Shown here one piece after another: positions 3,248 to 45,693 of a stretch of DNA of 64,000 bases. The notes beneath the pieces were generated by a model, which saw only the letters and a list, made by a program, of their open reading frames with translations, was not told the origin of the DNA and ran no database searches. This stretch comes from an uncultured Candidatus Saccharibacteria bacterium (lineage in GTDB: Bacteria > Patescibacteriota > Saccharimonadia > Saccharimonadales > EFPC-124): positions 257,641-321,640 of the forward strand of contig CBDDBE010000001.1 in NCBI GenBank assembly GCA_965225085.1. Direction: 5' to 3'. The translations under genes were made by a program, and so were the position numbers. How positions within the stretch are numbered: position 1 is the stretch's first letter; each line of letters opens with the position of its first letter.

Positions 3248-3731
3248 TGACTCAGACGAAGGCACGAATCAGAACTGAGATATACGACGCTGCCAAATTA
3301 AGCCCTGCCTGGGCATCGGTACTCACGAGAGAGCGCGGGCTCCATATTGCTATCATGCGTGAACCATTTCTATCGTACATTTTGACTGGCAAGAAAACTG
3401 TCGAATCAAGATTCTCGATCAACCGAATTGCGCCGTACCAGAAGGTTGGACCAGGCGATATCATCCTCATGAAATCCGGCCCGATCATCGGATGTTTCGT
3501 AGCGGAATGGGTGAAATTTTACGACCTAACCGAAAAGCCAATCGAAGACATAATTGCGACTTTGGCCATGAGATTTGCGGCGATAGCGACTTTTGGCGTC
3601 AGAAAAACAACAAGCGATATGCGACGCTCATTGGCATCAACGATGTACGTCAGCTAACGCCAGTACCTATCACGAAGAACGACCGACGGGGCTGGATTGA
3701 TCTCCCGGCGGACACGCAGACACATAGTTAA
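3244..3731 (+). pseudogene. ASCH-domain protein, apparently disrupted by a 1-nt frameshift near 3553-3557
   Basis: Frame 1 (3244..3657) encodes an ASCH N-terminal part (FLSYILTGKKTVESRF...GDIILMKSGPIIGCFVAEWVKFYDL). The expected ASCH C-terminus (HEICGDSDFWRQKNNKRYATLIGINDVRQLTPVPITKNDRRGWIDL) lies in the -1 frame (ORF 3492..3731). Confidence 0.5.
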
Positions 3732-4467
3732 TTGATATGTCATGCGCCATGAATTTCCGTTCGTAGTAGGTCGTGGCTTTGTAGTCATCCGGTAGATCGC
3801 TTTTGTGCAGATCGAAGGCCAGCTCGCGAATGACCCATCCCTCGGCTACTAATTGTTCTAGACTCCACAAAAAGAGCTCGCGATTGTCGGTTTTGAAGCG
3901 CAAGATGCCCGGCCGGTGCTGGACCTTCGTCAGAACAACATCTGCGTTCCCTGCAGACTGAGGCGCTGTTTGCGCCGAGGGCCGTTGTGAGGATGAAGGT
4001 CGAGCGCCGGGCGTACCATCCTTCAGCAACTCACCATACACTCGTAGAAATGCCGGATGCGTCAGCCGGTGCTTAGCCTGCCTGACGCGCGGAAACGGGT
4101 CAGGAAACGTCACCCACAGTTCGTCTATGCTCCCGGGTTCAAAAAGCTCGCGCACCTGCCGGAGCTGCGCGCGGACAAACAGAATATTGCGCAGGTCATC
4201 CTGCTGGGCCGCCTTGGCACCGGCATACAACCGATCAGATTTGACATCAATCGCGATAAAGTTACGTTCAGGATAAAGCCGCGCTAACTTACAGCTAAGG
4301 TCGGCCGTACCGGCACCAACCTCAACAATTAAAGGCTGATGGGTATCAAAATAGTTAGATAACCCGCCCGGCTTCACGTCACTGGCCTGCATGCAGTTCG
4401 ACCACTGGTCGAAGTGCGCAAACTTCCACTTTTTGCGTTTGCGCGTAATAAAAAGCGTCTCGCTCAT
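3670..4467 (-). CDS. trmB: tRNA (guanine46-N7)-methyltransferase
   Basis: 265-aa ORF with LIVEVGAGTADL (SAM motif), WVTFPDPFPRVRQAKHRL and ILRFKTDNRELF. It carries a roughly 30-aa low-complexity insertion (TPGARPSSSQRPSAQTAPQSAGNADV) between conserved blocks. Confidence 0.85.
   Translation of the reverse strand: MSETLFITRKRKKWKFAHFDQWSNCMQASDVKPGGLSNYFDTHQPLIVEVGAGTADLSCKLARLYPERNFIAIDVKSDRLYAGAKAAQQDDLRNILFVRAQLRQVRELFEPGSIDELWVTFPDPFPRVRQAKHRLTHPAFLRVYGELLKDGTPGARPSSSQRPSAQTAPQSAGNADVVLTKVQHRPGILRFKTDNRELFLWSLEQLVAEGWVIRELAFDLHKSDLPDDYKATTYYERKFMAHDISINYVSACPPGDQSSPVGRSS
3922..4001. repeat. palindromic repeat element, copy 1 (inside trmB CDS)
   Basis: The core at 3953-3993 (gcagactgaggcgctgtttgcgccgagggccgttgtgagga) is 39/41 identical to 45632-45672. 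It is flanked here by the 7-bp inverted repeat gaccttc (3922-3928) / gaaggtc (3995-4001). Confidence 0.7.
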
Positions 4468-9168: not shown

Positions 9169-9211
9169 ATCATCACATGGACGCCCAAACCCAGGGCGTC
9201 CATGTGATGAT
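9169..9211. terminator. bidirectional hairpin between convergent genes
   Basis: Perfect 16-bp stem catcacatggacgccc (9171-9186) / gggcgtccatgtgatg (9194-9209) with a 7-nt loop. It is extendable by 2 A-T pairs and lies between the dsbA-like stop (9165) and the stop of the 9218 gene. Confidence 0.7.
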
Positions 9212-16605: not shown

Positions 16606-16846
16606 TCCTTAAAACCCCTCCCCCGCTACGGAAAAAGAGGCCTTGAAAAAATCAACGCGTACAACCTTCCTGCTCGGGAGTATCACTCAGCTGATGTATC
16701 GGACTTCTTGCTTATCGGCAAGTTACCGTTGCGGCACAGTTCACGATTTGCACGTGATTCCACCAACTGAGCGGATAATTGTTAAGTTCGTTATTTTAGT
16801 ATAGCAGATGAGACTGACGCTGCTTTTACTTTTAGGCGTGCCAAAC

Positions 16847-22684: not shown

Positions 22685-24736
22685 TCAGCTCGGCACGGAA
22701 TACAACACATTGGTCGTCGGACTCGCCCCTCCGCCCCAATACGTCTCGTACACTACGTTCCCCACCGAGCTGTAGATCTGCTGGAAGCTTCCATCATCGC
22801 TCTTGTCCAAGCTCGTGATGGTCCCACCAGAGGGAGCCGTGAAGACGGTGTCTATCCCGTTGGTGCCGTTGTCCAACCACCAGAACTCCTGGATGTGGTC
22901 GGGCATGGCGGAGTACAACTCGTGCGAGCCACCGTAGTTGTCCTTTCTGATCTGGAAGGCGCCTGCCTGACCGGACATGGCTGCATGAGTCTCGATGCTG
23001 GAGCCTGGAGTCCAATAGCTCTGCCAAGCAGTCGTGGATGTTCCGGTGTACAGGAGCTGACCGTTGCTCTGGAAGGTGTCCCACGATAGGGAACGGATGT
23101 CTCCCTGGGTGATGTTCACCATGGAGCGTGCGTTCACGCCCTGCCCTGGCAACCACCACAGCTCGTACACCCAGGTCGGGGTTGCTACGAAGACCTCGTA
23201 GGAACCATCCGATCCAGTGCCGGCGGCCATGGCCACCCCACCTGCGATGTTATTCAGGCGGTCGACATGTACGCCGTCACCACCATCCTTCCACCAGGCT
23301 TCGTATGGTCCGTCAGACGCCAACAGGTACAACCGATGGACGAACTGACTTCCCTCGTAGACGTTGGCTGCGATGACCTGGCGGACACCTGAGAGCCCAG
23401 TGACAATCTTGGCACTGGATACCCCAGTCCCTGACCGCCACCATGATTCCCACACTCCATCTGGTACAGCGGTATACACCGCTTGCGTTACACCGTCAGG
23501 CATATTTACCTTGTCGATGCCGACGATGTTGGTCTGAGAGATGGTGATGATCTGGTCAACCCTCACGCCGTCCGCGCCCGGATGCCACCAGCCTTCGGTT
23601 ACCGTCGAGTTGGTTGCTGCGTAGACCTCGTGGGTCGTACCGTCCGGAGCCAAGCTGCGCTTGACCTGGAGGATGGTAGGAGGGGGCGGGGGTGTGGTGT
23701 TGTCGGGCGAGCTCACCACCGGCCCCGAGTTCGGGTCCGGAGCTGTATACGACCCAGACGTCGCAGGCAACACACTTGGATTGAGCGCATTCCGCTTCCG
23801 GACTGCCGCCCAAGCGATTTCTGCTGCCGAGCAGGATATCCAGCCATAGTGACCAGGGCATACCTGACTGCTGCCATCCTGATATTTTGTGCCGTGCACG
23901 TCCCCAAGGAGAGACACGTAACCGGCGCACATAACATCACCAGCCGCGCACCAGCTTCCGAAGCGACCGACGAACCGCCCGAGTACATAGGGTGCTCGCT
24001 GACCAAGGATACCGTTATTCAGTATCAGTCCGAAATCACGGTATCCTGGGTCATCTCCGCGCACCCACCACCACTGCGAGCTGAAGTAAACCCGGTTCAC
24101 CCGGTCGCTGAGCGGACCCGCATAGAACTTTGGATCGCCATAGAGCGCCACGAAGCCGATGTGATCCCCGACCGCCGGCAGCAGGTTGCTGCTTTGGAGC
24201 GCCCAACCCACCACGTCCGCGCCCTGTGAGTAGCCACCAAGCACGATGGATTCGTAGGGGCATTTCGTCACGCGATTGTTGAGATGGGCGACCAGCTCGT
24301 ACATACCTATGGTGACGCTTTGGTCGTACATCTGCACGCTTAGCGGATCGGTAGATGTTTCGAGGATGTTGGCAGGGTACTCATCTGAGGCGTTGGGCTT
24401 AGGCGGAGTGACACCCGAGTAGTCCGGGCTATCAGCCATATTGACGTATACATCGCCGTCTTCGTTGCCCAGCTCAGAGAAAGCGAAACTGACATGGCTG
24501 CCATCACTTGCCGTACTAGCCTCGACAGCTTGCTTGACTGACAGGTAGAACTGGTGGGCTCGCTTGTCGTTGAGATGCTCGTACGACCCGTGTACGAACA
24601 TGGCGTAAACGCCACCATTCACACAGCCCGGGTCCGCTTTGGCCCTCTCCGCTGGCCCAACGATGGTACCGAGCAGCATCGCTGTGGCGAGCGTGATTGC
24701 TCGCATACGGCGTGGGTAATGCGCTTTGGAGCGCAT
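22685..24736 (-). CDS. secreted cutinase-like serine esterase fused to a 7-repeat WW-motif beta-propeller (lectin-like)
   Basis: Start placed at ATG 24736 (RBS GAGAAGGTGAG) with signal peptide MRAITLATAMLLGTIVGPAERAKA. The exact cutinase nucleophile elbow G-Y-S-Q-G is present (Ser codon at 24227-24229). A Pro-rich linker (TTPPPPPT) follows. Seven repeats then end in EGWWHPG, ESWWRSG, EAWWKDG, ELWWLPG, QSYWTPG, EFWWLDN and ETYWGGG. Confidence 0.7.
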   Translation of the reverse strand: MRSKAHYPRRMRAITLATAMLLGTIVGPAERAKADPGCVNGGVYAMFVHGSYEHLNDKRAHQFYLSVKQAVEASTASDGSHVSFAFSELGNEDGDVYVNMADSPDYSGVTPPKPNASDEYPANILETSTDPLSVQMYDQSVTIGMYELVAHLNNRVTKCPYESIVLGGYSQGADVVGWALQSSNLLPAVGDHIGFVALYGDPKFYAGPLSDRVNRVYFSSQWWWVRGDDPGYRDFGLILNNGILGQRAPYVLGRFVGRFGSWCAAGDVMCAGYVSLLGDVHGTKYQDGSSQVCPGHYGWISCSAAEIAWAAVRKRNALNPSVLPATSGSYTAPDPNSGPVVSSPDNTTPPPPPTILQVKRSLAPDGTTHEVYAATNSTVTEGWWHPGADGVRVDQIITISQTNIVGIDKVNMPDGVTQAVYTAVPDGVWESWWRSGTGVSSAKIVTGLSGVRQVIAANVYEGSQFVHRLYLLASDGPYEAWWKDGGDGVHVDRLNNIAGGVAMAAGTGSDGSYEVFVATPTWVYELWWLPGQGVNARSMVNITQGDIRSLSWDTFQSNGQLLYTGTSTTAWQSYWTPGSSIETHAAMSGQAGAFQIRKDNYGGSHELYSAMPDHIQEFWWLDNGTNGIDTVFTAPSGGTITSLDKSDDGSFQQIYSSVGNVVYETYWGGGASPTTNVLYSVPS

Positions 24737-35668: not shown

Positions 35669-36103
35669 TCAACCAAATATTACCCTAGCTAGCTCGGCTT
35701 TATCATACGATGGATTCATGTCGAGCTCTGCAAACTCGCCCTCCGTGAACCATCCCCATTTTTCGACATGATCGGTCTTCGTGATTTCGCTTTCTGGGAC
35801 TGTTACTCTGAAGAAAACATTCATTCTCGGAACCCCGTTCACAACTTTTCCAATATTGTAATGGACGATCTGAAAATCACTCGAGACTGCTAAACTCGAC
35901 ACGCCTATCTCTTCTTTAATTTCGCGCAAAAGACAATCTTTTAGAGATTCACCGTAGTCTACGCCACCACCGGGGATAGCCCACCAACCGCCCCCGTCTA
36001 CTTCCTTCACTACTAGTATTTTATCTGCAGATACAATCAACGCTCGGACGGCAACTCGATACAGCGAATCATCAATCTCTTCTAACCGTGGGTCAACATG
36101 CAT
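35669..36103 (-). CDS. NUDIX hydrolase
   Basis: 144-aa ORF with the NUDIX box GGGVDYGESLKDCLLREIKEEIGV. Confidence 0.85.
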   Translation of the reverse strand: MHVDPRLEEIDDSLYRVAVRALIVSADKILVVKEVDGGGWWAIPGGGVDYGESLKDCLLREIKEEIGVSSLAVSSDFQIVHYNIGKVVNGVPRMNVFFRVTVPESEITKTDHVEKWGWFTEGEFAELDMNPSYDKAELARVIFG

Positions 36104-36143
36104 GCATCAATAGTATCATTAGTTTTCAAGCCGCTTGGATATA

Positions 36144-36173
36144 AAAACAGAACTGAAGTAACAGTTCTGTTTT
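36144..36173 (-). terminator. Rho-independent terminator, inferred to be the original tRNA-Asn terminator displaced by island insertion
   Basis: Perfect 12-bp stem aaaacagaactg (36144-36155) / cagttctgtttt (36162-36173) with loop aagtaa. It lies 5 nt left of the attL repeat. Confidence 0.7.
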
Positions 36174-36178
36174 CACTT

Positions 36179-36193
36179 GTTCTATCTTGGCTC
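36179..36193. repeat. island boundary direct repeat (attL-like)
   Basis: GTTCTATCTTGGCTC is identical to 45474-45488. Confidence 0.75.
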
Positions 36194-36261
36194 ACAACGA
36201 TAGAGGACGTTATAACCGCGATAAAGCAGGATTTTGCGCTTATTTAGTGGGCCGCCCACAC

Positions 36262-36825
36262 CTAACTCTCTATGGCTATCTCTTTCACTAAGTACTTCCC
36301 GTCTTTCTTTATGTCCCTAAGAATAATCCATTTGCTGAAAGTAAGATTAGTTTCAGGGCGAAAAGACTGGTCGGTCATTAATCGCGCCTGTTTGGTATAA
36401 GGAATTCCAAGCCGTACAGAAATGTGTGGCAAAAATGCTAAGTGCTCGAATAAGCCAACGGAATAATTGTTAGCTTTCAAAGTTCTTAGTATATGCTTGC
36501 GGTACGCTTTCATCTCAGAAGACGCACGGAGCTGAACTTGACTCGAAACTCTGAACAAAGGGCTAAATATATTGGCTGGCCTCTGAATCGTTGCCGTAAG
36601 TGGCAGGTTTTTTGATACCTTCAGTAGCCGCTCCATATCCTGCAATAAATCCATGTCGCTCATTTGTGTCGGGGTTTTGATGGTTCGCAGCAACGTTACG
36701 TGCGGTGTGTCGTCGCGGTATGGTGTGGGCGGTAGCGTTTCGCGAATAGCTTCTATGGACTTTGTGGATTGACGATCAGGCAATAAGCATATAGAGAATT
36801 CAGAGGTCATGTCGCGTTGGTTCAT
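36262..36825 (-). CDS. 2H phosphoesterase superfamily protein (LigT / cyclic phosphodiesterase-like)
   Basis: 187-aa ORF with two H-x-T/S-x motifs at the canonical spacing: PHVTLL (H42) and PHISVR (H134). Confidence 0.7.
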   Translation of the reverse strand: MNQRDMTSEFSICLLPDRQSTKSIEAIRETLPPTPYRDDTPHVTLLRTIKTPTQMSDMDLLQDMERLLKVSKNLPLTATIQRPANIFSPLFRVSSQVQLRASSEMKAYRKHILRTLKANNYSVGLFEHLAFLPHISVRLGIPYTKQARLMTDQSFRPETNLTFSKWIILRDIKKDGKYLVKEIAIES

Positions 36826-36895
36826 AAAGTTATTTTAGCAAAAAAAGACTTCTAAAGAGGGCCTTCATTACGCTTAGCCCGGCTTATACTACTAG

Positions 36896-38044
36896 CTAGT
36901 TCTGTCTAATTCTTACCGGCAACTCAATCACCCTACCGCCTCGAAAACGCAGTATGAGTTTCACTGTGTCTCGGTCTAAATCGGGCATTGGGCGGTGATT
37001 GTTAAAATCGTAACTCATAAACACTACTAGCCTTTGCATCGCGTCGGCTGTAATTGGGTGGGGATGGTTCGGCTGCTCTTGCTCAAAGGTGAATCTATCG
37101 GTACTGAATGGTGTCCCGTCGGCATTTGTGCCGTCTACCCTTGCCTCTGTAATATAGTCGTTTCTGCCGCCGTAATTGTCCACGTCTATCACAGCCCGAA
37201 ACGAAGCTCCGTGACCACTATAGTTCGAAGCCCAGACTGCTTCAGGCTCGGACAACGCCGCCTGTGGTGCTTGTGGCGCTTGCGGTGTGGGTGTCTTAGC
37301 GACAGTTTGCTTATGCCGCTTCGGGGCTTCTGCTGCTTTTCTAACCTCGGCGTTATCAAGTAAGTGCATAGCGAGGCTACTGAGAGCCAGATATTCATAA
37401 GCTCGAACGGGGTCTTCGATCTTGCCGTCGGATGTGTGGCTTTTCTCGTTACGGAACTGGTCAATAGCCATAGTAAGGAACTTAACGGCCTCTTGAAAAT
37501 CATGCTCCACATTGTCGGCTGCTGCTCCCCTTATGAAGAGGCCGCCTTTGCCGAAAGCCTCTGAACCGGTCTCATGCTTAGTAAGCTCGCGCAGCCTGTC
37601 ACGAACTACCTTGAAGCCTTTTTCTACGGCTTCAGGATAGTTCTTGCTTAGATAAAGGCTTGAGCATTTTGCCTTAATCGCATGATGTAGTGCATCTAAG
37701 GTTCCTGCACTGATAGGCTCGGTCTGTTTGTTGCTTGAAACTGTGCTTTTCAAGAACTCTACTACTCCTGTTAGTAAACTGCGGTTGCTCTTTATATGAC
37801 TAAAATATGCTTTTGTGTCGCGCTGTGCATTTTCCGCCGGATTACCAGCTATGACAACCGAAGATGTTCCGTCGCGCAAACCGAAGTCTCGTACCTCATC
37901 TGAGCTATCACCAAGAATTTGCTTCAGTAGCAGCTCGGTATGTCTATGCCAAGCCTCGTATGCTTCGTGATCTTCTTGTGCTGCAAGGTTGTCGAGCTTG
38001 TCGATTTGTTCTGTAAGTAATGCGGTGGCTTGGTCAGGCTTCAC
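36896..38044 (-). CDS. HEPN-type (Ymh/TIGR02391-like) domain protein with helical N-terminus and unknown beta-rich C-terminal domain
   Basis: 382-aa ORF with a GTG start. The central segment is LHHAIKAKCSSLYLSKNYPEAVEKGFKVVRDRLRELT...FRNEKSHTSDG...AYEYLALSSLAMHLLD. The R-x4-H motif RNEKSH is encoded at 37436-37453. A Pro/Ala/Gln linker and a 115-aa C-terminal domain follow. Confidence 0.65.
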   Translation of the reverse strand: MKPDQATALLTEQIDKLDNLAAQEDHEAYEAWHRHTELLLKQILGDSSDEVRDFGLRDGTSSVVIAGNPAENAQRDTKAYFSHIKSNRSLLTGVVEFLKSTVSSNKQTEPISAGTLDALHHAIKAKCSSLYLSKNYPEAVEKGFKVVRDRLRELTKHETGSEAFGKGGLFIRGAAADNVEHDFQEAVKFLTMAIDQFRNEKSHTSDGKIEDPVRAYEYLALSSLAMHLLDNAEVRKAAEAPKRHKQTVAKTPTPQAPQAPQAALSEPEAVWASNYSGHGASFRAVIDVDNYGGRNDYITEARVDGTNADGTPFSTDRFTFEQEQPNHPHPITADAMQRLVVFMSYDFNNHRPMPDLDRDTVKLILRFRGGRVIELPVRIRQN

Positions 38045-38106
38045 TACCCCTTAGACTCCTTACCGACATTATACGCCCACAGGACGGAGCGGTACAGATG
38101 GGCTTG

Positions 38107-38565
38107 CTATGCTATTAAATTGAGTCGCTCAAAGAGTGTAATTGAGGGTGGTGTCAGCCTGTAGCCGCCGAGTTGTGAGAGTTTCATCCACTCCAATTTC
38201 ACTAGGTCGTCGCTTAGCTTTGTTACTATTGCGTCTGCATCTTTGCCTACGTCCACGCGGTACACATTGAACTTCATTTTGCAGAGAACTTTTTCGCCGG
38301 TATCTTTGAGTGTCTTTTCGGTTTCGCCGGTTCCTTTGTCGTCTGCCAGTGCAACCTTGCAAGTGTTAGTGTCGATGCCGACTTCTTCTAAAATCTCGCG
38401 CCTCAATGCTTCAAGCTGAGTTTCTCCCTCATCAACGCCACCGCCGGGAATGTGCCAACAATCTGCGTACACCCCGCCGCCTTTCGAGTCCTTCATACCC
38501 ATAAGCAGCTTGCCATCTCTAGAAAAGATGAGCGCTGATACGATTTCGCGGTGGATAGTCCTCAT
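38107..38565 (-). CDS. NUDIX hydrolase
   Basis: 152-aa ORF with the NUDIX box GGGVDEGETQLEALRREILEEVGI. It has an ATGA overlap with the upstream gene. Confidence 0.85.
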   Translation of the reverse strand: MRTIHREIVSALIFSRDGKLLMGMKDSKGGGVYADCWHIPGGGVDEGETQLEALRREILEEVGIDTNTCKVALADDKGTGETEKTLKDTGEKVLCKMKFNVYRVDVGKDADAIVTKLSDDLVKLEWMKLSQLGGYRLTPPSITLFERLNLIA

Positions 38566-38825
38566 ATCTTTGTGAACCGCTGTGCGGTTTTGCCGTCTAC
38601 CTCGACATCCTCAACCCAATTTGCTACCGGGCGTATCCACGTGAGCTTGTCGCCGTACTCTGCTTGGTAAATAACACAAGGCTCGTTGTCTTCTTCGCGA
38701 AGGGCGATTGCTAAAACCTTGTAACTCAACTGCTTGTAGTGCATGTAACGAGCGCCCACGACGACTTGTTTGTTAGCTTTGGCTAGACGTGCGGATAGTT
38801 GTGACTGTGTTTCTTTTTCGTTCAT
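38562..38825 (-). CDS. DUF1653-like protein
   Basis: YMHYKQLSYKVLAIALREEDNEPCVIYQAEYGDKLTWIRPVANWVEDVEVDGKTAQRFTKI fits the DUF1653 pattern (from memory). The start is ATG 38825; the alternative is GTG 38837. Confidence 0.65.
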   Translation of the reverse strand: MNEKETQSQLSARLAKANKQVVVGARYMHYKQLSYKVLAIALREEDNEPCVIYQAEYGDKLTWIRPVANWVEDVEVDGKTAQRFTKI

Positions 38826-38829
38826 CTGA

Positions 38830-39315
38830 CTAAACACCTACCAGCTTCTTAAACTGTTCATGATCGTATTTTACTTCTGGATTGGTGTCATCAACGTGGA
38901 TGTTGTTGTCTGGGTTGAATGGCGGCGTGTTAATGACGATTAGCACTAAGTCTTCTTTTGGGATGGTAAAGTGTGCTGTTTGGGGCGGCGTCACAATAAC
39001 ATCGCCACTCTTTATTTGCAGCTCTTCACCACCCACAACGGTTACGCCACTGCCCGTAAGAATAAAATAAATCTCCGTTTCGCCACCGCTGTGGTAGTGT
39101 GGCTCAGCTACTTTTATCTCGCGCATATCAGCAATGGCGAAGCTCTCGTCAGGCCGATCAAGTGGACTTGTGGGTTCATAGACTGGTCCGCAGTATGTCG
39201 CTTTAGGTGTTACGCCTTCAACTACGTTTTGCCAATCGCCCATTGTGGCAATGTGTCCTTGCCACGCGGCAATGAGTTCTTTTATTTTTGGATCGTTCGT
39301 GGTGTTGAATATCAT
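38830..39315 (-). CDS. cupin-domain protein
   Basis: Start placed at ATG 39315 (MIFNTTNDPK...). The cupin motifs are AEPHYHSGGETEIYFILTGSG and GDVIVTPPQTAHF. The track start at 39423 overlaps the divergent gene. Confidence 0.65.
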   Translation of the reverse strand: MIFNTTNDPKIKELIAAWQGHIATMGDWQNVVEGVTPKATYCGPVYEPTSPLDRPDESFAIADMREIKVAEPHYHSGGETEIYFILTGSGVTVVGGEELQIKSGDVIVTPPQTAHFTIPKEDLVLIVINTPPFNPDNNIHVDDTNPEVKYDHEQFKKLVGV

Positions 39316-39337
39316 GTAAACCATTATACTAGAACAC

Positions 39338-39826
39338 ATGAAGAAGCCATTTACTGACGAAGACGCAGCCAAGCTCGTAGACTGTGCCGTCGAACTAGCC
39401 CAAACGGTAGCCACCGACAACAAAGGTCCCCAGCCAATGGCTATCTGCTGTATGAAGGCCGATCAAGGCGTTATGGGTGTGCCCACGGCGTATCGCTGTA
39501 TGGATACGGTCAAGGCAACCAGCGCTACCTTTGCCATCCACAAAGCATTTACAGTGCTTCTTTACCAAGCTGATACCAAAAAACATGCTGACCGTCTTAA
39601 GGATGGCACTTGGAGCGAGGCCGATATGATATTGCAGCAGCACACCATTCCACAATTCACGCCGTGGGATGGCGGCATACAGGTGAAGGATGACGAGGGG
39701 AATGTGGTTTGCTCACTTGGTGGCGCTGGACGCACAAGCGAGGGTGATCGTCGGCTAATGGTTTTGGCTGCACACAAAATGGGGTATAAGACTAATTTTG
39801 ATGAAAAGGGCGATCCGTTAGCTTAG
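39338..39826 (+). CDS. GlcG/HbpS-like (DUF336, haem-degrading-type) protein
   Basis: 162-aa ORF with a fold pattern ending in WDGGIQVKDDEGNVVCSLGGAGRTSEGDRRL, comparable to GGG.P....G..vGaiGVSG....D. Confidence 0.6.
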   Translation: MKKPFTDEDAAKLVDCAVELAQTVATDNKGPQPMAICCMKADQGVMGVPTAYRCMDTVKATSATFAIHKAFTVLLYQADTKKHADRLKDGTWSEADMILQQHTIPQFTPWDGGIQVKDDEGNVVCSLGGAGRTSEGDRRLMVLAAHKMGYKTNFDEKGDPLA

Positions 39827-39835
39827 GATTTTTAG

Positions 39836-40216
39836 ATGACCAACGAGATTACTCTAGCTATATCAGCCTTGGGCGTCGGTGGGCTGCTGGGTGCCCTAGT
39901 TAAATCGGTACTCGATAAGCGCCAGTACAAGTTCTCAAAAGCCTTTGACTATAAAGAATCCCGCTACAAGGCGATGATGATTCTAATGTGGATTGCTATG
40001 AATCCTAATGAGCATGAGCTTAAACAGCTTCGCCTACACAGACCCCAGATCAAAAACGCAAAAGAGCTAGAAAATGAATTAAATCTGGAGTACCACAATG
40101 CTATGCTTTTCGCTTCGGACACGGTGCTAAATAATTTAATGGCTTTTATGAAAAATAAGAATCCCGAAAACTGGCAGCATACAGTCCGAGCCATGAAGAA
40201 AGACCTGTACTTATAG
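39836..40216 (+). CDS. hypothetical protein with N-terminal TM helix
   Basis: 126-aa ORF starting 10 nt after the GlcG-like stop, with TM segment ITLAISALGVGGLLGALV. No family recognised. Confidence 0.5.
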   Translation: MTNEITLAISALGVGGLLGALVKSVLDKRQYKFSKAFDYKESRYKAMMILMWIAMNPNEHELKQLRLHRPQIKNAKELENELNLEYHNAMLFASDTVLNNLMAFMKNKNPENWQHTVRAMKKDLYL

Positions 40217-40225
40217 ATTTCGCGC

Positions 40226-40699
40226 CTAAACGTGTACCGTGTCGTCAATCAGCCCTTGCTCTCGAAAACTAAAATAACCAGTCTTCGTGACAATAAAATG
40301 GTCCCGTAACGGAATGCCGAGCAATATCCCCGCCGCTATAAGCTGCTGCGTAGTCTTAATATCTTCCTTGCTAGGCTCTGCTATGCCGCTCGGGTGGTTG
40401 TGGGCAATAATAACGCTTGCGGCTCGATCCATTAGTGGCTCAGCGAACATTTCTCGCGGATGTACCAGACTGCTGCTTAGTAGCCCTATCGTCACCACGC
40501 GCCGCCGTATGAGCCGCCCAGCACTATCCAGCGACAATGTAACGAAGTACTCTTGCCGTCTATCTCTAAACGGCTTGAGACAGGCTAGTACGTCGTGGGT
40601 CGATCGTAGCGGTTTGGTGATGTTTGGCTGCTGACAGACCACACACGAGCTTCCTTCGCTCCTTTTGTAGGAGAGTCGCTTTTTTCGGCGACTCCCCAT
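40226..40699 (-). CDS. RadC-like JAB/MPN domain protein
   Basis: 157-aa ORF with the JAMM motif IIAHNHPSGIAEPSKEDIKTTQQL and the E-containing upstream block. This domain is typical on mobile elements. Confidence 0.85.
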   Translation of the reverse strand: MGSRRKKRLSYKRSEGSSCVVCQQPNITKPLRSTHDVLACLKPFRDRRQEYFVTLSLDSAGRLIRRRVVTIGLLSSSLVHPREMFAEPLMDRAASVIIAHNHPSGIAEPSKEDIKTTQQLIAAGILLGIPLRDHFIVTKTGYFSFREQGLIDDTVHV

Positions 40700-40914
40700 T
40701 ACCGTTAGGCTCCTGTACCGGAGCTGTCAGACCAGCTAACCATTTTTAACCCTGATTTTCCTTATTTTCTACTATTTATCACTGGTAGTATCGCCGTGAT
40801 TAGTTCTTCGTCGTCCTTTGGTAACTTCGGACCTTGGGGTCGAACCTTTGTTCCCCGCGGCGTAATGCTTGCCCTCATTTCTCTCATGATTTCCCACAGG
40901 ATTCTTGTTACTGC

Positions 40915-41379
40915 CTAGAACACAGCCTTAATTGGGGCAACTTGTGTTGCGTCCGTGGAGTGAATGTCTACTAACAGTGATCCCATTACAAGTACAGTGT
41001 CTGAGCTGTTTGTGAAATAGGATGTCTTTGCGCCCTCGGCCTTAGAATTGTTGGCGAACTCATACAGCTCGACATTCGTTTCGCCAACATTGTACTTACC
41101 GCCCTTGTTTGCACCAACCATTTGATAGTACGCGCCTTGGTCATTTGAAACCGTAAAGCCGGCAGCCTTCCAGGCGGCAACAGCCGATTTAATGTCAGTC
41201 ACTTTTGTAACTTCAACATTCTTGGTCTGAGTCTGTTGCTGTCCTTCGTCATTCGTAGTTGTAGTCTTAACTGCCACTGTCTTTTTATTATCGTGGTTGC
41301 CCATGACAACGGCCCCCACAACCACTGCCACTACGACAACTACGCTTGCTACTATCATTGTTATTTTCTTGCCACTCAT
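40915..41379 (-). CDS. hypothetical membrane-anchored exported protein
   Basis: 154-aa ORF with RBS AGAGGAG and TM segment ITMIVASVVVVVAVVVGAVV. No family recognised. Confidence 0.55.
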   Translation of the reverse strand: MSGKKITMIVASVVVVVAVVVGAVVMGNHDNKKTVAVKTTTTNDEGQQQTQTKNVEVTKVTDIKSAVAAWKAAGFTVSNDQGAYYQMVGANKGGKYNVGETNVELYEFANNSKAEGAKTSYFTNSSDTVLVMGSLLVDIHSTDATQVAPIKAVF

Positions 41380-41847
41380 CGTACTGCACTCCTCTGTATG
41401 GATTTAGTTAGTATTCGGCGGCATCAAAAAAGCTCGCCGCCAGCGATGCCCTTTCGGACACCCACAGCCGTTTCCGACTGCGACCATACAGAACAGTGCT
41501 CTGACGACGAGCTGTTTGTTCTGTATGGATTGATACGACCATACCTGTCCCTTACGGGTGGCTCTAGGTCTAGGCGATAAATCGCTTAATGCTACTATAC
41601 AACAATAACAGGAGTAAGTGTACTTTTTATCATCTCAACGCTCAAGGCCCGCTGGAGAGCTTCCAGAGAGCCCACAGAGGGTATTAAAAGCCTGTTCATC
41701 TTTTTGTATCGGAGGAGATGAAGCAATGCCGCCCAAATTTTTAAGCCAGATTTTGACCCCCTTAACGCCATTTTTCACTATTCACCGGCCCCCTATTTTC
41801 CATACGCCGAATCCCTTAAAAATCCGGCAAAAGCGTACAAGTTTTCA

Positions 41848-42087
41848 CTAACTTGTAAGGAAATTAAAGACTGCTTTGCGCTGGTTTTCTTTCGCAAGAG
41901 TCATCCGCTCCGCGAAGACTGGATTGCTATTGAAGTGGTAGTAGTACACCTGACGGCTTATACCCGCATAACGGCACGAATCTGTGATGCTGGCGCTGTG
42001 TGCTATCGCATCTGCCAATTTGAAAACTGTCCGCATGTTGATCTTAGTGGGTCGTCCCACTGCGTTTTTGATTGCTTTGGTTGCCAC
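41848..42087 (-). CDS. small helix-turn-helix protein (homeodomain/terminase-small-like HTH)
   Basis: 79-aa ORF: GRPTKINMRTVFKLADAIAHSASITDSCRYAGISRQVYYYH. Confidence 0.5.
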   Translation of the reverse strand: MATKAIKNAVGRPTKINMRTVFKLADAIAHSASITDSCRYAGISRQVYYYHFNSNPVFAERMTLAKENQRKAVFNFLTS

Positions 42088-42151
42088 GAGTAACTCCTTT
42101 ATTTTTGTAAAAACCTCTACTCTAATTATAAAAGACGAGCGCTTGAGAGAT

Positions 42152-42162
42152 GTTGCAGCAAC
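42152..42162. promoter_or_regulatory. candidate operator palindrome in the divergent HTH / 285-aa gene promoter region
   Basis: GTTGC-A-GCAAC is a perfect 11-bp palindrome. It lies 20 nt before ATG 42182 and 65 nt from the HTH gene start. Confidence 0.35.
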
Positions 42163-42181
42163 TGGTTACTGATGACTTATA

Positions 42182-43039
42182 ATGTTAATCAATCGCATGA
42201 AAGTAGCCGACCAATTAACGAACAATAATGATTATCCAGTTGTAAGGGTGCTAAACACTGTGGCCTTATCCGTTATTGCTTCAGTCCGAAAGGCTGAGGA
42301 AATGGATTTGCCTGAAGACTATGAGATTAACGAACTGAATCGTGCGTACGTGCTCCTCGTTCACGAGCTTGAGAAGTTGTACGGTCAAAACCCCAGCTTG
42401 GCTGAAATAGGGCCAGAACCATTTTGGAAACGATTCGATGTCCTGAAGCACCGATCCTGGAAGATGCTCGATGACTTAGACGATCCTGACAACGACAAGG
42501 GGCTAGCCCACATGCTTAAGCTGGATAAGTTATGTATCATTGCGGACAGTGAGACGCCTGAGTTATCGGCAGAACAAGTTAAGCTTATTGAGCAGGTGCT
42601 GGAAGCTGTCAAAAAGTACCGCCAAGTGCTTGATGATGCAAGACTCGATAAAAACGCAAGAATAGAAGACTCGTGGTACGTACCCGAATATAAGCTGAGC
42701 TATACCGACGGTATAATAGTTATAAATGATGTGCTTAGGCTGAAAAAGACTCACATCGATTCATCCATAGATAAACTGCTTGAACAAGCCTTCAAGAATC
42801 GGAATAAGTTATTTACTCCAGAATTGCCGCAAACAGCCCGTAACTTAAGCACTATGCTGAGTAGCGCTGGCTTCACGCCGACGCTTAGACAGCTCTTCTT
42901 CCCTGCTGTTGGTAAGCGTAGGGGTGTTTTATTTCGCCCAATCGTATCTAGCGTACAAGCTAGCAAAGAAAAGATAGACACAACTAAATTGGACCTGACG
43001 CTTCAAGCATTGGACGCAGTCGTTACGTTTTCTGAATAA
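42182..43039 (+). CDS. hypothetical protein (285 aa, mostly alpha-helical, acidic)
   Basis: Long ORF with AT-rich codon usage consistent with the island. No family recognised. Confidence 0.55.
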   Translation: MLINRMKVADQLTNNNDYPVVRVLNTVALSVIASVRKAEEMDLPEDYEINELNRAYVLLVHELEKLYGQNPSLAEIGPEPFWKRFDVLKHRSWKMLDDLDDPDNDKGLAHMLKLDKLCIIADSETPELSAEQVKLIEQVLEAVKKYRQVLDDARLDKNARIEDSWYVPEYKLSYTDGIIVINDVLRLKKTHIDSSIDKLLEQAFKNRNKLFTPELPQTARNLSTMLSSAGFTPTLRQLFFPAVGKRRGVLFRPIVSSVQASKEKIDTTKLDLTLQALDAVVTFSE

Positions 43040-43229
43040 CCAATATAAATCGAACCGAAAATCGCAGTAATGAACCGAAACGTTGGCAGCTTGAACCTTT
43101 TAGCTACGCCATAAAACCCATTCAACGACAAGAGACTTATAAAGATCTCTAATAGTGGCTAGGACGAATAATCCGAGTTCACCTAGCATTCAATCGTCCC
43201 GTTAGGCGAACTCTCCACGGAGAGCAGAA

Positions 43230-43379
43230 ATGCTGTTAAGTAAAGATTTAGTAGAACGGTTTCAAGCAATCTACGTTAATAAAAATGGTGAAATGATTGG
43301 CTACGCCGAAGCCGAGTCGCAACTCAAAGAGCTTGCAGAGCTAGTACGCTTAACCAGTGCAATGCAGGAGGTCAAATAA
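43230..43379 (+). CDS. possible small protein (49 aa)
   Basis: ATG at 43230 is preceded by GGAGAG. It encodes MLLSKDLVERFQAIYVNKNGEMIGYAEAESQLKELAELVRLTSAMQEVK. Its stop lies 1 nt before the next ATG, and the next gene's AGGAGG RBS sits inside its 3' end. It is below the track's size cut-off. Confidence 0.4.
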   Translation: MLLSKDLVERFQAIYVNKNGEMIGYAEAESQLKELAELVRLTSAMQEVK

Positions 43380-43380
43380 C

Positions 43381-43725
43381 ATGGCCAAATCATTCACGGT
43401 TGAAGCACAGGTCCATATGCCTATTCCACAAGGCTACCGCGTAAAGGTGTCGGTACTTGACATAGGTATGTATATAAACGGGATGGTGGTAATGCCGCCA
43501 AGCGAAAGTCACGATAACTGGACGGTATACCCACCATCTCAAAGGGCTGGCAGGGGTAAGTACTCCTACATTATAGAGTTCAATAAGCAACTCCCTTTAT
43601 GGCAAGAAATCTACGACGCTTGCGTCGATGCTGTAAAGCTCGAACTATCGTACGACAAAAAGGATGTGGTAATCACTGACTTTGATGAAAACGCGCCCAT
43701 TAACTTGGATGATATACCCTGGTGA
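43381..43725 (+). CDS. hypothetical protein (114 aa), faint SpoVG-like pattern
   Basis: ATG at 43381 is preceded by AGGAGG at an 8-nt spacing. The sequence is VKVSVLDIGMYINGMVVMPPSESHDNWTVYPPSQRAGRGKYSYIIEF. The family assignment is not secure. Confidence 0.5.
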   Translation: MAKSFTVEAQVHMPIPQGYRVKVSVLDIGMYINGMVVMPPSESHDNWTVYPPSQRAGRGKYSYIIEFNKQLPLWQEIYDACVDAVKLELSYDKKDVVITDFDENAPINLDDIPW

Positions 43726-43730
43726 ACAAA

Positions 43731-43816
43731 CCTTTACATTAGTAGACCTTTATATATAAAGATCACCTTTAACTATTAAAGATTATCTCCATATAAAGGT
43801 TCTACTAAGTAAAGAT
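43731..43816. promoter_or_regulatory. inverted-repeat / TAAAGAT-repeat region upstream of the recombinase gene
   Basis: Arms cctttacattagtagacctttatat (43731-43755) and atataaaggttctactaagtaaag (43791-43814) are inverted repeats differing by a 1-nt register shift. TAAAGAT occurs three times within 60 bp. Confidence 0.5.
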
Positions 43817-43886
43817 ATACATTCCTCGGGGAAGAACTATAATACAAGCCACAGAATTGGCGTATGCGCCAGAAAAGGATATAACT

Positions 43887-45524
43887 ATGAATAGCCGAAA
43901 TTTACAAAGCTTACGTTACTGCTTATACGCGCGAAAATCTACTGACACAGAAGATCGGCAAGTGCAGTCGCTAGACGACCAAGTAAAGGTCATGAAAGGA
44001 ATCGCTAAACGTGAGGGGGTTCGCATAATCGGCGAGCCTCTTCGCGAAAGCAAGTCAGCAAAACGGCCCGATGCTCGTCCTGTCTTTGGCGAACTGCTAC
44101 AAGAAATTGAGGATGGCAAAATTGACGGTATAGTGTGTTGGAAATTGGATAGGCTCTCAAGGAACCCTAGCGACTCCGGTCGTATCCAACAGCTCTTACA
44201 AGACGGTAAACTCAAGCATATTTTAACTGCTGAAAAGAGTTACTTCCCCGAAGACAACGCCATTGTGTTCAGTGTAGAGGCGGGAATGTCTAACCAGTAT
44301 ATTCGTGAGCTTGCGAGTAATACGAGACGTGGAATGCAGTCGAAAGCAGAAAAAGGTAATAAGCCAGGCGTGCCGCCCGTGGGCTACTTAAATGACCGAC
44401 TTGAAAAGATTGTTATTGCTGATCCTGATCGGTTCACTGCAATGCGTATGCTCTGGGATAAGATGCTGACAGGAACATACTCGATGGCTCAGCTGGTTCA
44501 TGTTGCAGACAAAGAGCTGCACATAACCACACCAGTTAGAGGCAAGACAGGTGGAGGGCCAATCGCCTACTCAAGCATGTGTGCTTTATTCAAAAACCCG
44601 TTCTACACGGGAAAGCTTCCCTTTAAAGGTCAGCTATACCCAGGCAACCATCCAGCAATGATTACAGAGGAGGAATTCGAGCGAGTGCAGCAGATTATTG
44701 ACCCGTTGCATACAACGCGCCCGAAAGACAAAACATATAACTTCCAGCTGCGTAACCTTTTCCGTTGTGGGGAGTGTGGCTTTGCGATAACCGCCGAGCA
44801 GAAGCATAAAACGATTAAATCTACGGGCGAAAGCAGAGAGTACGTCTACTACCACTGTACTGGGAAGAACAAGGCCATAAAATGCAGTCAGCCTAAACTA
44901 CATGTAAACGAAGATCAGCTAATTGAACAAATTAAAGAGAAGCTTAACAAATTCACGATTGACCCCGACTTCTACAAAATTGCTATCGAGGCATTGGCGC
45001 AGGAAGAAGATGAGGTCGTTGAAAAAGATCAGGCTAAAACACTGGCCCGTGATAAGGCTATCGAGAAAAAGAATCAAGCTATAACCAACCTACGTCGCAT
45101 GAGGTACAACGGAGAAGCTGATGATGACTCTTGGTACTTTGCTGAGATGCAGACGCTTGAAGACGAGCTGGAGGCGCTACAGAAGCAACGTAATGACGCT
45201 GAATATAAAGCTCGTGACTGGCGTGCCAAAGCCGACGAGGTGTTCACGTTTGCTCGCTATGCCAAAGAGGACTTTGACAGCGATGACTTAGAGAAGAAGC
45301 GCTCCGTAATTGTGAAGCTCGGCGAAGTGCTTACGATTTTGGATAGAACCATACAATTCACCCCTAATAAATTCTTCATTCCGCTTGAAAAAATGAATGA
45401 GCAGCAGAAACTGGCTCCAGAAATGGTTAGAACCGACTCCCAACAGAGGGGAATCGGTTCTAAACACGATGTAGTTCTATCTTGGCTCCGGGGGCGGGAT
45501 TCGAACCCGCGACCAATTGATTAA
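43887..45524 (+). CDS. large serine recombinase (integrase)
   Basis: ATG at 43887 (RBS AAAGGA). The resolvase-type catalytic domain has YCLYARKSTDTEDRQVQSLDDQ (nucleophile Ser) and DRLSRN. A recombinase domain, a zinc ribbon (FRCGECGF...YYHCTGK...C) and a coiled coil follow. The last 51 nt cross attR and the tRNA gene. Confidence 0.9.
   Translation: MNSRNLQSLRYCLYARKSTDTEDRQVQSLDDQVKVMKGIAKREGVRIIGEPLRESKSAKRPDARPVFGELLQEIEDGKIDGIVCWKLDRLSRNPSDSGRIQQLLQDGKLKHILTAEKSYFPEDNAIVFSVEAGMSNQYIRELASNTRRGMQSKAEKGNKPGVPPVGYLNDRLEKIVIADPDRFTAMRMLWDKMLTGTYSMAQLVHVADKELHITTPVRGKTGGGPIAYSSMCALFKNPFYTGKLPFKGQLYPGNHPAMITEEEFERVQQIIDPLHTTRPKDKTYNFQLRNLFRCGECGFAITAEQKHKTIKSTGESREYVYYHCTGKNKAIKCSQPKLHVNEDQLIEQIKEKLNKFTIDPDFYKIAIEALAQEEDEVVEKDQAKTLARDKAIEKKNQAITNLRRMRYNGEADDDSWYFAEMQTLEDELEALQKQRNDAEYKARDWRAKADEVFTFARYAKEDFDSDDLEKKRSVIVKLGEVLTILDRTIQFTPNKFFIPLEKMNEQQKLAPEMVRTDSQQRGIGSKHDVVLSWLRGRDSNPRPID
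45474..45488. repeat. island boundary direct repeat (attR-like)
   Basis: GTTCTATCTTGGCTC is identical to 36179-36193. Its last 6 nt are the complement of the tRNA 3' end GAGCCA. Confidence 0.75.
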
Positions 45525-45557
45525 CAGTCAACTGCGCTACCGCTGCGCTACCCCGGA
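45483..45557 (-). tRNA. tRNA-Asn (anticodon GTT), CCA encoded
   Basis: Hand-folded 75-nt cloverleaf. The acceptor stem TCCGGGG/CCCCGGA has 7 perfect pairs. The D arm is GCGC-AGCGGTA-GCGC. The anticodon arm is GTTGA-CTGTTAA-TCAAT. The variable loop is TGGTC. The T arm is GCGGG-TTCGAAT-CCCGC. The discriminator is G, followed by CCA. Confidence 0.95.
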
Positions 45558-45568
45558 ATACAGATGTC

Positions 45569-45607: not shown

Positions 45608-45693
45608 GTGCACATCCCAAAGGATCCTCCCGCAGACTGAGGCGCTGCTTGCGCCGAGGGCCGTTGTGCGGAAGGACCCTCTGGGATGTGCAC
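45608..45693. repeat. palindromic repeat element, copy 2 (intergenic)
   Basis: The core at 45632-45672 is 39/41 identical to 3953-3993. Here it is enclosed by the perfect 12-bp inverted repeat gtgcacatccca (45608-45619) / tgggatgtgcac (45682-45693). Confidence 0.7.

Follow-up and report, generated by a model that had tools for sequence, protein, structure and literature searches.

Rickettsia palindromic elements (RPEs) are palindromes of ~100-150 bp in small, reduced genomes, where they are located between genes as well as in-frame in housekeeping genes, in which they encode a peptide that is compatible with the fold of the host protein (PMC10969869). In RPE families, the sequence is conserved across the element, there are dozens of copies per genome, and in three of the families nearly half of the copies are inside ORFs (PMC10969869). 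Bacterial MITEs (e.g. QMITE1/2 of Coxiella, ERIC, BOX and those of Anabaena) are also small, non-coding and hairpin-forming, vary in their presence between genomes and are occasionally inserted in-frame (PMC5896051, PMC10969869). Here, we analyse a stretch of 64,000 nt from an uncultured Candidatus Saccharibacteria bacterium (from here on, the window), for which a preliminary description based on the sequence had proposed a palindromic repeat element inserted in-frame inside trmB. This proposal is borne out by an insert of 105 nt, an intact ORF and the existence of dispersed copies of the element.

Most of the small palindromic elements known to be in-frame in essential genes come from Rickettsia and a small number of other bacteria. 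Saccharibacteria, which are part of the candidate phyla radiation, have genomes of ~1 Mb, and their mobile elements are barely catalogued. Several other types of small elements are relevant for a comparison. MITEs have terminal inverted repeats that are common to the copies and to a parent insertion sequence, and target-site duplications are usual. REP sequences and REPINs are hairpin-forming mobile DNA thought to move as a folded single strand by means of a RAYT transposase acting in trans; in a REPIN, the conserved REP sequence forms the stem and the loop is variable. IS200/IS605-derived elements have neither terminal inverted repeats nor target duplications and rely on single-strand hairpins, and they have a fixed 4-5-nt target and conserved subterminal hairpins. 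Finally, attC sites are recognised by their fold and are variable in sequence, with the boxes R''/R' (RYYYAAC/GTTRRRY) at the base and a variable centre. In agreement with the preliminary description, we found no report of palindromic elements, MITEs or REPs in Patescibacteria/Saccharibacteria in the literature.

The Pfam match of the TrmB protein encoded in the window ends at residue 151 (profile position 110 of 173), where the insert starts, and the TrmB structures 7nyb and 2fca in the PDB match the protein in two stretches, one on each side of the insert. A search of 5.8 billion proteins returned 1134 TrmB homologues. The other 119 homologues listed among these are 178-235 aa long compared to 265 aa for the protein in the window, and the 35-residue segment is absent from all 119; the identical sequence aside, the closest of the matches listed have 62-63% identity. 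Two of the homologues among the matches listed are named Candidatus Saccharimonadales. When the window TrmB was aligned with 14 homologues, the 35 extra residues were located exactly between the ...LLKDG and G(I/V)LRFKTDN blocks. These residues (152-186) are TPGARPSSSQRPSAQTAPQSAGNADVVLTKVQHRP.

Moreover, the 105-nt segment is missing at all seven syntenic trmB loci (L012-L018, from relatives and including 10-kb flanks). At the four of these seven loci checked at the level of codons, the sequence reads ...GAC GGC GTG CTG... or equivalent where the window has 105 additional bases. Because GG is present at both ends of the insertion, its boundaries (3910-4014) may be shifted by as much as 2 nt. 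The gene order aaRS - hypothetical - trmB - HhH-GPD is common to the window and L012-L018 and, therefore, trmB in the window is an orthologue and not a paralogue. The preliminary description had suggested an alignment of TrmB orthologues, and both the 14 aligned homologues and the syntenic loci identify the segment as an insertion; none of the homologues and loci examined supports the alternative that distant orthologues carry the same segment. The insertion of ~30 residues (26 of which were quoted) that had been proposed is thus correct in kind, but its actual size is 35 residues or 105 nt.

The element inside trmB (from here on, copy 1) had originally been placed at 3922-4001; this span is too narrow, and the element extends over approximately 3907-4014 (Table 1). 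The described match between a 41-nt core at 3953-3993 and the sequence at 45632-45672 was confirmed, with the two being in the same orientation and identical at 39 of 41 positions. A 37-nt part of this core recurs at one mismatch, and 0 matches are expected based on 100 shuffles. The internal hairpin ggcgc-tgttt-gcgcc was also confirmed at 3962-3976. The 7-bp inverted repeat gaccttc/gaaggtc that was thought to flank the element was found as well, but as a segment of longer arms (3991-4012 and 3907-3932) that pair imperfectly, with one C.C mismatch, one A.C mismatch and a 4-nt indel. Copy 1 has a predicted folding energy of -39 kcal/mol on the minus strand (z -3.6) and of -54.7 kcal/mol on the plus strand (z -5.7). 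Its core is identical to the full-length cores in other genomes and contigs at 53-55 of 57 nt.

Table 1. Coordinates of the hairpin element copies, the host gene and the empty site in the window
Feature	Position	Strand	Basis
trmB, tRNA (guanine46-N7)-methyltransferase, 265 aa, host of copy 1	3670-4467	minus	Pfam Methyltransf_4, E 1.8e-24
Net in-frame insertion, 105 nt = 35 codons, TrmB residues 152-186	3910-4014	minus	Protein alignment and codon-level comparison
Copy 1, whole hairpin, 106 nt	3907-4012	minus	Covariance model 105 bits, E 4.8e-26
Copy 1, outer stem, 5' arm, private C-rich sequence	3991-4012	minus	
Copy 1, outer stem, 3' arm, pairs with 3991-4012	3907-3932	minus	
Copy 1, conserved core: internal loop, inner stem, hairpins 1 and 2	3933-3990	minus	nhmmer 76 bits
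Copy 1, inner stem ACAAC/GTTGT, 5 bp	3984-3988 with 3935-3939	minus	
Copy 1, hairpins 1 and 2	3962-3976 (hairpin 1); 3941-3957 (hairpin 2)	minus	
Copy 2, intergenic, decayed	45608-45693	minus	Inverted repeat; covariance model 59.6 bits
Empty site, orthologous to the filled site in L001	60758-60817	minus	Flanks align, whole palindrome missing

Copy 1 belongs to a family of hairpin elements of which we identified eight copies. These occupy seven sites and come from at least six genomes or contigs that are Saccharibacteria-like: two are in the window (copy 1 and copy 2), and the others are in L001, L002, L004, L006, L013 and L014, with the copies in L013 and L014 being an orthologous pair that we counted as one site. 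An exact scan of species-representative genomes using a 23-base core pattern identified one further copy (L001), and a looser pattern used on the JGI metagenomes identified six loci, three of which are true copies (L002, L004 and L006). The other three pattern matches (L003, L005 and L007) are in DNA of 64-73% GC and were discarded as chance matches. Using a covariance model built on six copies together with a core profile, we detected diverged copies near trmB of relatives, i.e. in L014 (77 bits) and L013 (49 bits). Exact-pattern scans are too strict to gauge the spread of the family: it took the profile and the covariance model to detect these two copies. No further copies were detected in the rest of the window, in ~13 kb of extensions from the same genome or in the loci of the other five relatives. 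Thus, there are two copies in the 64 kb of the window and one site in ~145 kb from relatives. The preliminary description had called for a count of the core across genomes and relatives; the core occurs beyond the two sites in the window, i.e. in other genomes, in metagenomes and at the loci of relatives, and it does so in a conserved hairpin context.

Of the seven sites, at least five are intergenic and one, possibly two, are coding. The possible second coding copy is located at the 5' end of an O-antigen-ligase-like ORF in L001, a metagenome-assembled genome of an uncultured Candidatus Saccharibacteria in which the proteins flanking the element are 65-80% identical to proteins of the window. 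L006 carries a protein that is 84% identical to one of the window genome. In IMG/VR, two core and two arm patterns had 0 matches among viral contigs, and collections of phages and plasmids contained chance-level matches to the element only. Neither window copy matched a family in Rfam 15 at the gathering score; at the E-value threshold, there were only weak matches to hairpin-type microRNA precursors that are far below the cut-offs, and no family related to RPEs was among the matches. As a separate result of the Rfam scan, the window carries a LOOT RNA.

The elements have a length of ~87-110 bp, with an outer stem of 14-27 bp and a centre of 57-62 nt. The six copies that were folded (copy 1, copy 2, L001, L002, L004 and L006) share one shape, which consists of the outer stem, a small internal loop (TC/TC), a 5-bp inner stem (ACAAC/GTTGT) and two hairpins with the sequences GGCGC-AARCA-GCGCC and TCTGC-GGGGAAC-GCAGA. 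While the centres are 89-100% identical between copies, and those of L002 and L006 are identical at 57 of 57 nt, the 5' arms have an identity of only 18-45%. Irrespective of orientation, the longest string common to the arms of different copies is 6 nt, and shuffled arms give as much. As the preliminary description had recognised for the copies in the window, the outer stems differ in sequence and yet pair, and this is the case in every copy. In the six-copy alignment, 22 of the 29 outer-helix pairs are changed on both sides, and 80.5% of outer-helix cells pair compared to 31-43% when the partners are slid; none of 500 shuffles reached 80.5%. The 5' arms are C-rich (68 C vs 24 G in 151 nt), a feature that, given the complementarity of the arms, is valid on either strand. 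Arms are perfect in the copies with the least decay (24 of 24 in L001; 20 of 20, followed by a bulge, in L004).

Within the centre, each stem has undergone one compensatory double change: A-U to G-C for the inner stem (in L001), C-G to U-A for hairpin 2 (in L004) and G-C to C-G for hairpin 1 (in L013 and L014). Because all three core stems have compensatory changes, the fold is under selection somewhere, an observation that suits an RNA equally.

Copy 2 has a predicted folding energy of -65.9 kcal/mol (z -10.9). It has its own arms of 25-27 nt and a core that is conserved over 45629-45669 but lacks the 3' strand of the inner stem as well as the 3' half of hairpin 2. This copy occupies an interval of ~100 nt that is bounded by a strong terminator-like hairpin (45735-45700) and by an 11/12 match to a promoter (45597-45569), which is upstream of tRNA-Asn. 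A low-GC island that adjoins copy 2 encodes a large serine recombinase, and no transposase was detected in this island using Pfam. We considered, and rejected, a link between copy 2 and the recombinase because copy 2 is on the other side of tRNA-Asn and outside of the island.

A filled site could be compared to an empty site at three orthologous sites, i.e. at trmB, at the site of the L001 copy and at the site of the L014/L013 copy. At trmB, both arms are inside the 105 extra bases. The site orthologous to that of L001 is empty in the window (Table 1); with residual lengths of 33 and 34 nt, the filled and the empty site differ by a net 105 nt. The L014/L013 copy is located between the stop codons of a gene for an MscS-type channel and a convergent gene. 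In L012 and L015, this site is empty, with no more than a few bases separating the stop codons of the MscS gene and the convergent gene; in L010, which is from the window genome, and in L016-L018, the MscS and convergent genes are called 2-8 nt apart. Based on the three orthologous empty sites, we conclude that the stem and the centre insert as one unit. Reading the flanks by eye, we found no target-site duplication common to the seven sites; candidate duplications are GG at trmB and, possibly, TCAGC at L014. Likewise, a conserved target motif was not detected, the 5 nt of the left flanks being GGTAC, TTTTT, AACGA, TAGAA, CCCAC, ACAAA and TCAGC. Thus, with no shared terminal repeats, target duplication or target motif, no known transposition chemistry is indicated.

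Similarly to RPEs, the element in trmB is a palindrome of ~100 bp that is in-frame in a housekeeping gene, leaves the ORF intact and is predicted to form a loop. However, the Saccharibacteria element is conserved only in its centre, with stems that are private to each copy; it is in coding sequence at one, or possibly two, of the seven sites, and it seems to be present in few copies. Moreover, the host phylum is unrelated, and the likeness is drawn from behaviour and not from a comparison of sequences; the resemblance to RPEs proposed in the preliminary description therefore stands with respect to behaviour but not with respect to family membership. As for MITEs, the element is small (87-110 bp) and non-coding, and its presence/absence varies at three sites; by contrast, it has no terminal repeats common to the copies, the termini being the variable part, no common target-site duplication and no known parent element. 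Compared to REPINs, the layout is reversed with a variable stem and a conserved centre, and no RAYT gene was detected in those parts of the window that were scanned against Pfam. Like IS200/IS605-derived elements, the element forms hairpins and is without terminal repeats and target duplication, but there is no motif in the flanks and the conserved hairpins are central. Finally, attC sites have a similar length, and the inner stem CACAAC/GTTGTT has a faint resemblance to the R''/R' boxes; however, its box-like strands miss the consensus at two positions each and enclose a conserved centre, and the copies are solitary with neither a cassette array nor an integron integrase nearby. In total, the element behaves like RPEs and in-frame MITEs but fails the defining features of MITEs, REP/REPIN, IS200/IS605 elements and attC sites.

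Altogether, these observations make it likely that the segment in trmB is one copy of a mobile DNA element of Saccharibacteria that is short and non-coding and forms a hairpin. The unit that moves would be the whole hairpin, consisting of a private outer stem with the conserved centre at its tip. A structure-recognising enzyme supplied in trans would recognise the conserved centre together with a stem, whatever the sequence of that stem, and the moving form would be a folded single strand, as suggested by the lack of conserved ends and of a consistent target duplication. Most insertions would land between genes, and the inserted copies would be neutral relics that decay. The copy in trmB would owe its survival to a length divisible by three and to the lack of a stop codon in the frame used. 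A Pfam scan of TrmB, of four neighbouring ORFs including the serine recombinase and of the ORFs at 36-44 kb detected no mobilising enzyme.

An alternative to a mobile element is that the conserved centre is a functional structured RNA, i.e. a module for processing, stability or protein binding or an undescribed ribozyme, in which the closing stem is free to vary; the copies would then be RNA genes or cis-elements, and the copy in trmB would be accidental or act within the mRNA. Conserved loops together with a covarying closing stem are a classic signature of RNA, and the compensatory double changes in the inner stem and in hairpins 1 and 2 are consistent with this idea. Also, the three copies that are informative with respect to orientation (copy 1, copy 2 and L002) are co-oriented with local transcription, and the identity of the cores is higher than that of the neighbouring genes, the proteins of which are 65-80% identical between the window and L001. 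Nevertheless, we regard a functional RNA as unlikely. In addition to the lack of an Rfam family at either threshold, the positions of the element are not syntenic and its presence varies between genomes, with three sites being empty in relatives, and copy 2 persists between terminator-like and promoter-like sites without part of the core. The copy in L013 is truncated, lacking the 5' arm and 10 nt of the core, and between the orthologous copies in L013 and L014 there are 4 differences in 52 nt of the core and 3-4 in 23 nt of the arm; hence, the core drifts about as fast as the arms and is not clearly better kept. Moreover, the strand on which arm mismatches are compatible with G.U pairing differs between copies, indicating no consistent transcribed strand, and neither strand of the element folds consistently better. 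The preliminary description had left undecided whether the repeat is a structured RNA or hairpin-dependent mobile DNA; that resident copies decay speaks for mobile DNA rather than for a functional RNA gene. Because resident copies drift and decay, the near-identity of the cores reflects recent copying from intact sources and not constraint on each copy. That the cores exceed the surrounding genes in conservation would require either horizontal spread or master copies that are active.

The idea that the shared sequence is a protein module, in which a low-complexity linker with the sequence SQRPSAQ(T/A)APQSAG(N/S)ADV is selected as protein, is based on TrmB and the O-antigen-ligase-like ORF of L001, which have nearly the same peptide in the same frame. 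We consider this idea very improbable because the element is intergenic at five or more of its seven sites and because conservation is at the level of nucleotides, including third codon positions and even copies with in-frame stops; also, the peptide is predicted to be disordered. Among 1.84 billion representative proteins, no carrier of the peptide was found, and the insert peptide had just four low-complexity matches with 39-44% identity. A chimeric five-frame peptide query gave 15 candidates sharing words with it, none of which had an E-value of 10 or lower, which is a weak test for a 20-residue low-complexity match; similarly, a 41-column peptide profile gave no candidate in a search that is weak for a low-complexity match of ~20 residues, and other coding copies are possible. 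Finally, the window is from a metagenome-assembled genome, in which repeats can be mis-joined. The probability that the element is an assembly chimera or a chance similarity is, however, negligible: no chance match is expected from the shuffles, the reading frame and the gene order are both preserved, and five other genomes or contigs contain homologous copies. Moreover, in the Logan contigs of the runs SRR9179560 and SRR9179562 (L010 and L011), the junction from trmB through the 3' arm into the core is identical to that in the window. As the same junction is present in two independent assemblies, it is not a mis-assembly. Both contigs end at position 3982 of the window, inside the core of the element; beyond this position, the next 31-mer would lose the sole copy-specific base (T at 3952). 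We infer that the contigs stop at a graph branch caused by a further copy of the element in those samples.

Assuming that the element is mobile DNA, its private stems need an explanation. Since the cores of L002 and L006 are identical (57/57) while their arms are unrelated, ordinary substitution is not a ready explanation, and this suggests that the stem is replaced wholesale and is perhaps made at insertion. In one possible version of the mobile-DNA explanation, the stem is not inherited but rebuilt at each insertion: a single strand ending in the core would fold back on ACAAC/GTTGT, a polymerase would extend it, and the resulting perfect hairpin would be joined into a break. Several observations are consistent with such a route. 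In the orthologous L013 and L014 copies, by contrast to L002 and L006, arms and core diverge at similar rates; the least decayed copies (L001 and L004) have perfect arms; the inner stem sets the 3' end of the core beside its 5' end, which is a self-priming geometry; and the 5' arms are C-rich and, therefore, not random genomic sequence. However, rebuilding of the stem predicts that a copy of the arm is present in the flank of a donor, and no second match of any arm was found in 265 kb of related DNA, which is a small share of the genomes, and no arm pattern matched in IMG/VR. Moreover, in donors that already have arms, a simple fold-back would re-copy the same arm, and no gene for a polymerase, reverse transcriptase or end joining is linked to any of the copies. 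Rebuilding of the stem is therefore a tentative proposal with the odds against it, and we think it rather unlikely that the stem is made anew at each insertion, be it by self-primed fold-back or by capture of a short sequence, with only the 60-nt centre being inherited.

In the frame used by trmB, the insert contains no stop codon and encodes a hydrophilic peptide rich in Pro, Ser, Ala and Gln, while the remaining forward frames would encode Arg- or Cys-rich peptides. AlphaFold2, using an alignment of 15 sequences, predicted a confident Rossmann-like fold for TrmB with 123 residues at pLDDT ≥90; residues 153-182 were predicted to be coil with pLDDT <50. In B. subtilis TrmB (7nyb and 2fca), the insert maps to the GKGG turn preceding the strand SIHFKTDN, and the insertion point is between G146 and G147 in this surface turn. 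The prediction, which addresses the modelling proposed in the preliminary description, is thus that the 35 residues form a disordered loop on the surface. Given a hydrophilic peptide and a landing site in a surface turn, the insert would be read through as a disordered loop, and translation of the insert probably leaves a working enzyme.

The case of trmB extends in-frame palindromic insertion to Saccharibacteria. It is also a warning for annotation, because the insert splits the Pfam match of TrmB. Similarly, the repeat probably breaks short-read contigs, with two assemblies ending inside the core. The combination of identical centres with unrelated, perfectly paired C-rich/G-rich stems raises a question of mechanism. 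If the stems were rebuilt at each insertion, this would be a new mode of transposition that is undescribed for any bacterial repeat, and the hairpins that are naturally in-frame in genes of this phylum, in which genomes are tiny, would offer a way of studying it.

The element copy in the Saccharibacteria MAG L001 was open in the reading frame used by the trmB copy (…SQRPSAQTAPQSAGSADV…), and comparison of the filled L001 site with the empty window site gave a net length difference of 105 nt, as at trmB. Because it shares this open frame and the net 105 nt with the trmB copy, the L001 copy may be a second in-frame insertion, in this case in the N-terminal tail of an O-antigen-ligase-like protein. 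Should the true start codon be downstream of the copy, the copy would instead be part of a 5' UTR. In TrmB of the window, the C-terminal tail (residues ~253-265; window 3670-3710; …PPGDQSSPVGRSS) was ~8-13 residues longer than in most homologues and is predicted to be disordered.

The L013 copy had lost its 5' arm together with the initial 10 nt of the core, and therefore the stop codon of the MscS-type channel gene now abuts the core. In hairpin 1, a G-C to C-G swap was common to the L013 and L014 copies. On either strand, the 5' arms were C-rich and the 3' arms G-rich; in the seven full copies, the 5' arms together contained 68 C vs 24 G in 151 nt. Therefore, the element stems are not random genomic sequence.

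Two independent Logan contigs carrying the trmB-element junction terminated at the identical core base (L010 7371 and L011 3961, corresponding to window 3982), beyond which the next 31-mer would drop the sole base specific to the trmB copy. That both contigs end where this base leaves the 31-mer suggests that a further element copy with an AAACA loop variant is present in these samples. Weak core-profile matches (E 0.2-0.5) were detected within Sua5/YciO genes of three relatives (L015 16558-16586, L017 16956-16985 and L018 16942-16965), at positions that apparently correspond to each other; most likely, these matches are a coding-sequence coincidence.

Element copies outside the window and further features in the window
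Feature	Location	Strand	Remarks
L013 element copy	L013 15654-15709	-	orthologous to L014 copy; related genome
L014 element copy	L014 15626-15733	-	orthologous to L013 copy; related genome
L001 element copy	L001 2585-2690	-	within ORF 1308-2795
Long hairpin	window 9169-9211		18-bp perfect stem, 7-nt loop; unrelated to element
AdoCbl (cobalamin) riboswitch aptamer	window 16647-16788	-	53.5 bits, slightly above gathering score 50
Long hairpin	window 24000-24053		20-bp stem, 90% complementary; unrelated to element
LOOT RNA (Rfam RF03000)	window 41445-41570	-	61.9 bits, above gathering score; within low-GC island
Large serine recombinase	window 43857-45524	+	at end of low-GC stretch
tRNA-Asn	window 45483-45557	-	overlapped by 3' end of recombinase

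Both long hairpins in the window are probably terminators. The GC content was 0.45-0.48 across window 36000-45560 vs ~0.54 elsewhere, and the cargo of this low-GC island includes a 2'-5' RNA ligase family protein, a Ymh-family protein, NUDIX, cupin and HbpS-like proteins, and RadC. This stretch has the appearance of an element integrated at the tRNA-Asn 3' end.
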